A stretch of 64,000 bases of DNA, from the NCBI RefSeq assembly GCF_058153355.1, contig NZ_CM177019.1, one strand, 5' to 3'. Shown here one piece after another: positions 13,563 through 14,292 of the stretch; position 1 is the stretch's first letter; the number at the start of each line of letters is the position of its first letter. A program made the position numbers and the translations under genes. A model generated the notes under the pieces. That model ran no database searches, had not been told where the DNA came from, and saw only the letters and a list, made by a program, of their open reading frames with translations.

Positions 13563-13578
13563 ATTTTATAACCCAGAA

Positions 13579-13607
13579 CGGGCGTCAGAAATGACGCCTT
13601 TTTTATT
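13579..13607 (+). terminator. rho-independent terminator between J and lom
   Basis: GGCGTCA-GAAA-TGACGCC hairpin followed by TTTTTTATT. Confidence 0.6.
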
Positions 13608-13628
13608 GCAGAAAAGCGAGAGGTAATT

Positions 13629-14228
13629 ATGCGTAAAGTTTGTGCAGCCATGTTGTCCGCAGCCCTCTGTCTGGCCGTATCCGGTGCGCCTGCATGGGCG
13701 TCTGAGCAGCAGGCCACGCTGAGCGCGGGGTATCTTCATGCCTCGACGAACGTTCCCGGCAGCGATGATCTGAACGGGATTAACGTGAAATACCGTTATG
13801 AGTTTACGGACACACTGGGGATGGTGACGTCATTCAGCTATGCAGGAGACAAGAATCGCCAGATTACCCGTTACAGCGATACCCGCTGGCATGAAGATTC
13901 CGTTCGTAACCGCTGGTTCAGCGTAATGGCGGGGCCGTCTGTGCGCGTGAATGAATGGTTCAGCGCGTATGCGATGGCGGGTGTGGCTTACAGCCGTGTG
14001 TCGACTTTCTCCGGAGATTATATCCGCGTAACTGACAACAAGGGGAAAACGCACGATGTGCTGACCGGAAGTGATGACGGTCGCCACAGCAACACGTCTC
14101 TGGCGTGGGGGGCTGGCGTGCAGTTTAACCCGACCGAGTCCGTGGCCATTGATATTGCTTATGAAGGCTCCGGCAGTGGCGACTGGCGCACTGACGGTTT
14201 CATCGTGGGTGTCGGTTATAAATTCTGA
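13629..14228 (+). CDS. lom: Lom outer membrane protein (Ail/Lom family)
   Basis: Signal peptide and beta-barrel pattern ending GVGYKF; matches lambda Lom. Confidence 0.85.
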
Positions 14229-14254
14229 TTAGCCAGGTAACACAGTGTTATGAC

Positions 14255-14282
14255 AGCCCGCCGGTTCAGGCGGGCTTTTTTG
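14255..14282 (+). terminator. rho-independent terminator after lom
   Basis: AGCCCGCC-GGTTCA-GGCGGGCT followed by TTTTTT. Confidence 0.6.
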
Positions 14283-14292
14283 TGGGGTGAAT

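Follow-up and report, generated by a model that had tools for sequence, protein, structure and literature searches.

The accessory gene lom, which has been linked to adhesion, has long been known, and its slot between J and the side-tail-fibre gene stf is textbook lambda. The lom gene of lambda is reported to be expressed in lysogens (PMC7067206); lom has been classed as a moron (PMC3594210), and plaques form without it (PMC10695390). For the lom paralogue of phage 24B, constitutive expression uncoupled from phage regulation has been described (PMC3342100, PMC4651098). In a lambda lysogen, lom mRNA escaped detection in one array study, which called the lom promoter little known (PMC2147009).

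Here we describe the lom locus in a window of 64,000 nucleotides, the whole stretch of DNA that was analysed. The locus carries the common lom 'moron', placed between J and stf as is usual in lambda-like prophages, and in this sense it is already known. Its sequence shares 93-98% identity with many lambdoid coliphages and Stx phages, and the unit 13560-14300 matches 4,708 of the 5,426 complete E. coli genomes (median 2 copies per genome, at most 14). Our additions are small: the exact boundaries of the cassette (13608-14281), the probable assignment of the hairpin upstream of lom to J, and the finding of no visible promoter. Their importance goes little beyond tidy annotation, but the visible lack of a promoter sharpens the old question about lom transcription in lysogens.

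Layout of the region between J and stf

The features from the end of J to stf, all of them on the plus strand, are as follows.

13059..13562, + strand: 3' fragment of J with the C-terminal receptor-binding domain (Pfam PF12421 Ig_GpJ_C, 2e-37)
13560-13562, + strand: stop codon TGA of J
13580..13607, + strand: hairpin A with its T-run, intrinsic-terminator-like, at the 3' end of J (terminator scans, folding, covariation, lom-less loci)
13608..13628, + strand: lom leader, the left end of the lom cassette (junction set by lom-bearing versus lom-less loci)
13618-13623, + strand: ribosome-binding site GAGAGG of lom, inside the lom leader
13629..14228, + strand: lom, encoding a 199-aa outer-membrane beta-barrel protein of the Ail/Lom family (Pfam PF06316 Ail_Lom, 1.7e-119)
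14226-14228, + strand: stop codon of lom
14255..14281, + strand: hairpin B with T6, intrinsic-terminator-like, the right end of the lom cassette (scans, folding, conservation)
14282..16734, + strand: ribosome-binding site of stf (GTGGGGTGAAT) and side-tail-fibre gene stf (Pfam PF08400 phage_tail_N, 8e-69; junction comparison)
14293, + strand: ATG of stf

Residues 1-199 of Lom align to positions 1-199 of the 199 positions of the PF06316 profile, i.e. over the full length; the N-terminus is signal-peptide-like, and the same gene is annotated as Lom in related phages. The reading frame of lom is intact, although J just upstream is frameshifted. At the start of stf the motif GTGGRGTGART-ATG lies 3' of a T-run in lom-bearing and lom-less phages alike.

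Hairpins flanking lom

An earlier note on this DNA had proposed a hairpin plus T-run directly before and directly after lom; both are present at these places and both are conserved. Hairpin A (GGGCGTCA-GAAA-TGACGCCT, 13580-13599) is followed by the T-run TTTTTTATT, which extends from 13599 to 13607. Its stem has 8 pairs (7 Watson-Crick pairs and one G.U; 5 GC pairs) and its loop 4 nt; it starts 18 nt past the J stop codon, and the T-run ends 21 nt before the ATG of lom. The predicted folding energy is -14.7 kcal/mol (z -3.8), a value that none of 200 shuffled sequences attained. Hairpin B (AGCCCGCC-GGTTCA-GGCGGGCT, 14255-14276, with T6 at 14276-14281) has a GC-rich stem of 8 pairs, 7 of them GC, and a loop of 6 nt. 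It starts 26 nt past the lom stop codon and ends 11 nt before the ATG of stf (14293); its folding energy is -19.1 kcal/mol (z -2.4), with 3 of 200 shuffles as good. In stem and loop size and in the sense-strand T-run 3' of a stop codon both hairpins correspond to intrinsic terminators, and in the case of hairpin A covariation can be added.

For the covariation analysis of hairpin A we aligned 20 distinct variants and compared them with 500 column shuffles and with controls in which the pairing partner was slid by 1-3 columns. Standard pairs are formed in 98.8% of the cells (37-60% in the slid controls), and compensatory changes occur in four of the eight pairs, values reached by 0 of 500 shuffles. 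Examples of such two-sided changes are GCGCC/GGCGC, GCGTC/GACGC, GCACC/GGTGC and GTGCC/GGCAC. The loop sequence varies freely among the variants, and in the T-run there is no variation at T32-T35 and T37 and hardly any at T36. Because of the compensatory changes, the high proportion of paired cells and the shuffle result, the alignment can be taken to have shown that the structure of hairpin A is under selection. In two variants, found at four loci (including L067 and L116 of IMG/VR), an exactly inverted loop (AGAAAT to ATTTCT) stands on an unaltered stem, which looks like a small inversion across the palindrome.

Hairpin B is kept in all 94 lom-bearing loci (see below). It is nearly invariant, with 97% of the cells paired, variation mostly in the loop, and T-run columns that are invariant or nearly so. 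Compensatory pairs were not found among the aligned variants; the few changes in the stem are single and of the wobble type. The structure of hairpin B is thus supported by conservation and wobble-tolerant changes only.

Within 9000-19000 the two hairpins are the two top terminator-like matches. A loose terminator scan gave no overall enrichment (9 found, 9.2 expected). In a strict scan (perfect stem of at least 7 pairs, at least 4 GC pairs, at least 6 T in 8; 20 dinucleotide shuffles as controls) we found 8 sites in the 64-kb window, compared to a shuffle mean of 0.45. The + strand of the phage part (1-19.4 kb) holds only three of the strict sites: hairpin A, hairpin B and a site at 19409, 3' of the last tail-fibre gene. 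Hairpins A and B are more than chance. An Rfam scan of 12500-15500 at a permissive threshold returned three sub-threshold chance matches and no known RNA family; among the candidates discarded is a Trp-leader-like match over hairpin B (21.7 bits, gathering score 41). We also rejected a bidirectional terminator, as on inspection the sequence upstream of either stem is not A-rich. The GenBank records of phage 434 and of one lambda isolate have neither a terminator nor a promoter annotated here.

lom as a present-or-absent cassette

Scanning IMG/VR with the conserved stf start yielded 120 loci, which together with phage records gave 118 distinct upstream contexts. lom lies directly upstream of stf in 94 of these loci. 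Another 17 loci are lom-less, and in 15 of them (PhiR63_1 and 14 IMG/VR loci) the J stop codon is followed by hairpin A and then by stf. These junctions read J stop, a spacer of about 20 nt, hairpin A, TTTTTTATTT, GTGGAGTGART, ATG of stf. The lom-bearing loci read, on the 5' side, J stop, hairpin A, TTTTTTATT, GCAGAAAAGCGAGAGGTAATT, ATG of lom, and on the 3' side TGA of lom, 26 nt, hairpin B, TTTTTT, GTGGGGTGAAT, ATG of stf. As the two kinds of junction differ by exactly this segment, the variable cassette is 13608-14281; it comprises the ribosome-binding site, lom and hairpin B, and has T-run joints on both sides. The difference may have arisen either by insertion of lom at the T-run or by loss of lom through recombination between the two T-runs.

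The 15 lom-less loci keep hairpin A 3' of J with stf directly downstream; therefore hairpin A appears to be a feature of the J end, or of the J-stf junction, and not part of a lom unit. Hairpin B moves with lom and is absent from the 15 empty sites; at one further locus (L081) it stands before stf, 3' of unrelated tail genes. What had been described as a bracket around lom would accordingly consist of J's own terminator and lom's terminator.

Two loci of the scan were set aside: L032, seemingly a different upstream context, is really an IS insertion beside hairpin A, and L071 is a chance pattern match. In phage D2 (OM475427, L003 2360-2500) an internal deletion fuses J to the last ~120 nt of lom; the remnant carries the annotation 'host specificity protein J', and the record contains N's.

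The GC content of lom (0.52-0.58, about 0.55) shows no contrast with that of J and stf (0.47-0.63), so that we discarded composition as a mark of foreign origin.

Search for a lom promoter

Between the T-run of hairpin A and the ATG of lom there are 21 nt (13608-13628), and these contain the ribosome-binding site; this segment is too short for a promoter to fit into it. A scan for the sigma-70 consensus gave no match in 13000-14300. We also scanned 13250-13620 with approximate weight matrices. The best scores lie at about the 99.9th percentile of the background, no higher than some 1,850 tests would give by chance. Candidate motifs, among them TATAAC at 13567 and TTTATT at 13602, were discarded as too weak or wrongly spaced. 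In lom-less phages stf is preceded by the same J 3' end with hairpin A, and therefore nothing upstream is specific to lom. Searching the literature for a mapped lom promoter, start site or transcript map, we found only statements of expression in lysogens and of a poorly known promoter.

The earlier note had made its reading of lom as an autonomous transcription unit depend on a promoter between J and lom. Going by the 21-nt gap and both scans, there is none at the level of the sequence. The reading holds insofar as lom is separable, present in some phages and absent from others, and equipped with its own ribosome-binding site and hairpin B; it fails for hairpin A, which belongs to J, and for the promoter half. 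In a lysogen, lom must be transcribed either by leak-through of hairpin A or from a promoter, weak or unlike the consensus, that lies within or overlaps the J 3' end and hairpin A.

Models for the transcription of lom

Taken as a whole, the locus is probably best explained as a lambda-type lom moron cassette, made up of a ribosome-binding site, lom and terminator B, that sits right after J's terminator A. In lytic late transcription, Q-modified RNA polymerase from pR' ignores terminators. If lambda biology applies here, the Q-modified polymerase of the late operon would pass both hairpins during lytic growth, and J, lom and stf would be co-transcribed. In the repressed prophage, where the polymerase would be unmodified, hairpin A would halt stray transcription of the tail genes before lom and stf, and hairpin B would keep lom transcription out of the tail-fibre genes.

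It is next to inconceivable that the hairpins are chance inverted repeats, or generic repeats without function. The loose scan, with as many matches as expected (9 and 9.2), would agree with this, but the strict scan does not (8 sites against 0.45); besides, the positions of both hairpins match the two intergenic gaps exactly, there are compensatory changes in hairpin A, hairpin B is found in 94 of 94 loci, and there is no Rfam match to a repeat family. Covariation and the strict scan effectively refute this reading. We also hold it unlikely that lom is truly autonomous, with a promoter that is active in the lysogen and lies within the final ~100 bp of J or the 17-nt spacer past the J stop, hairpin A being the 5' leader of the lom mRNA and acting as an attenuator or a stabilising stem-loop. 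Expression in lysogens has been reported (PMC7067206), the spacer and the hairpin are conserved before two lom alleles that are only 47% identical, and TATAAC (13567-13572) lies 7-8 nt upstream of hairpin A, with similar AT-rich motifs in most variants. However, TATAAC lacks the critical final T as well as a -35 partner and scores low (2.07), the region upstream of lom in lambda is without this motif, and the same J 3' end with hairpin A stands before stf in phages that have no lom.

Two further proposals concern what hairpin A, or both hairpins, would do to the transcript, and both seem to us rather improbable. According to one, the hairpins serve mainly RNA stability: after endonuclease cleavage in AU-rich stretches of the late polycistronic mRNA, the stem-loops would shield J, and then lom, from 3' exonucleases, and in this way set the relative levels of J, Lom and Stf. 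Since Q-modified polymerase ignores terminators, a terminator inside the late operon has no obvious role in the lytic phase, which speaks for this proposal, as do the constant position of a hairpin 3' of J with or without lom, the selection on the stem of hairpin A, and the AU-rich single-stranded stretches 3' of both stems. A 3' stabiliser, however, would not need the canonical U-tract that is strictly conserved after each stem. Termination and RNA stabilisation are not mutually exclusive roles. According to the other, the post-J hairpin is a regulated gate (an attenuator) and not a plain stop; the promoterless lom cassette would have been placed exactly at its T-run, and leak-through or an overlapping non-consensus promoter would set the level of Lom in the lysogen, or that of the side tail fibre in lom-less phages. 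If true, this would explain why a lom promoter has never been defined. The reading that we prefer remains the moron cassette behind J's terminator.

The surrounding prophage

From its gene content, the prophage that carries the locus is a decayed deletion remnant. Terminase and head genes are missing between the lysis and tail genes: the phage lysozyme gene (734-1267) is followed within ~1 kb by the minor tail gene Z (2260-2844). Owing to a 1-nt deletion in the C-run near 12967-12971 (GGCCCC-ACC here, five C's in relatives), J falls into two frames, 10165-13011 and 13059-13562, and is either a pseudogene here or affected by a sequencing error. The tape-measure gene H also appears split, into 4718-6844 (TMP_2 and TMP_4 domains) and 6959-7789 (lambda tape-measure C-terminal domain), which suggests a second inactivating lesion. 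An open frame of 564 codons, antisense inside J (11095-12789, minus strand), most likely results from the GC richness of the coding strand; in lambda records a comparable ORF, orf206b, is annotated antisense inside stf.

Downstream, 3' of the first stf-tfa pair, lies a second tail-fibre gene (17306-18718) with the same N-terminal domain as stf (PF08400, 5.9e-69), beside which a DUF4376 protein is encoded (18675-19292), forming a tandem tail-fibre module. Convergent with the tail-fibre genes is a gene for an IpaH-type type-III effector (LRR and NEL E3 ligase; 19472-21223, minus strand), and a strong GC-rich hairpin (19409-19428) lies between them. Beyond the IpaH-type gene follow chromosomal genes, namely for an isochorismatase-family protein (22427-22993) and aspartyl-tRNA synthetase (23303-25075). 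The best E. coli matches carry ipaHd, and none of them covers 80% of the query; ipaHd is an effector gene characteristic of invasive E. coli and Shigella. The DNA of the window probably derives from Shigella or enteroinvasive E. coli.

Comparison with known morons and lom genes

Like the morons of HK97 and HK022 (e.g. gene 15 in the tail operon of HK97), lom is an extra gene between two tail genes of an otherwise collinear operon. Morons of this type are absent from close relatives and have a factor-independent terminator downstream (PMC3594210); correspondingly, lom is present or absent at one site in close relatives and has its own terminator-like hairpin downstream. The definition of these morons also includes an own promoter and an atypical GC content, and in the sequence lom displays neither a promoter of its own nor a composition unlike that of its neighbours.

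The lom paralogue of short-tailed Stx phages (phage 24B / 933W type) belongs to the same Ail/Lom family (41% identity) and, as here, has a hairpin plus T-run downstream. Unlike the lom gene described here, it does not lie between J and stf, and it is preceded by a 90-nt AT-rich region, compared to the 21 nt between T-run and ATG here; a consensus scan of this upstream region found no promoter. In phage 24B (HM208303 45576-45599; L128 2277-2300) we observed a terminator-like hairpin and T-run, ACCCGCTGTGATGGCGGGT TTTTTATTGC, 24 nt past the lom stop codon; the paper on the small RNA 24B_1 found no Rho-independent terminator with ARNold in the region downstream of lom in this phage. A link between our locus and 24B_1 was dismissed, as this RNA belongs to another phage type, in which it lies downstream of a different lom paralogue, and so was one to the Pas sRNA, an irrelevant match on reference name only.

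In lambda itself (J-lom-stf, 18904-19649 of lambda) the gene order and the Ail/Lom family are the same as here, and hairpin B and the stf start are homologous (AGCCCGCCGGAACCGGTGGGCT TTTTTT GTGGGGTGAATATG). Lambda Lom is only ~47% identical to Lom here over most of its length, and DNA homology between the two loci begins in the last third of lom. Between J and lom, lambda carries a hairpin and a T-run TTTTATTAT at 18920-18935 that are non-homologous to hairpin A; this hairpin, CGTCCG-GGAA-CGGGCG, is weaker (-9.7 kcal/mol, z -1.0). Two unrelated sequences thus provide a terminator-like element at the same place behind J.
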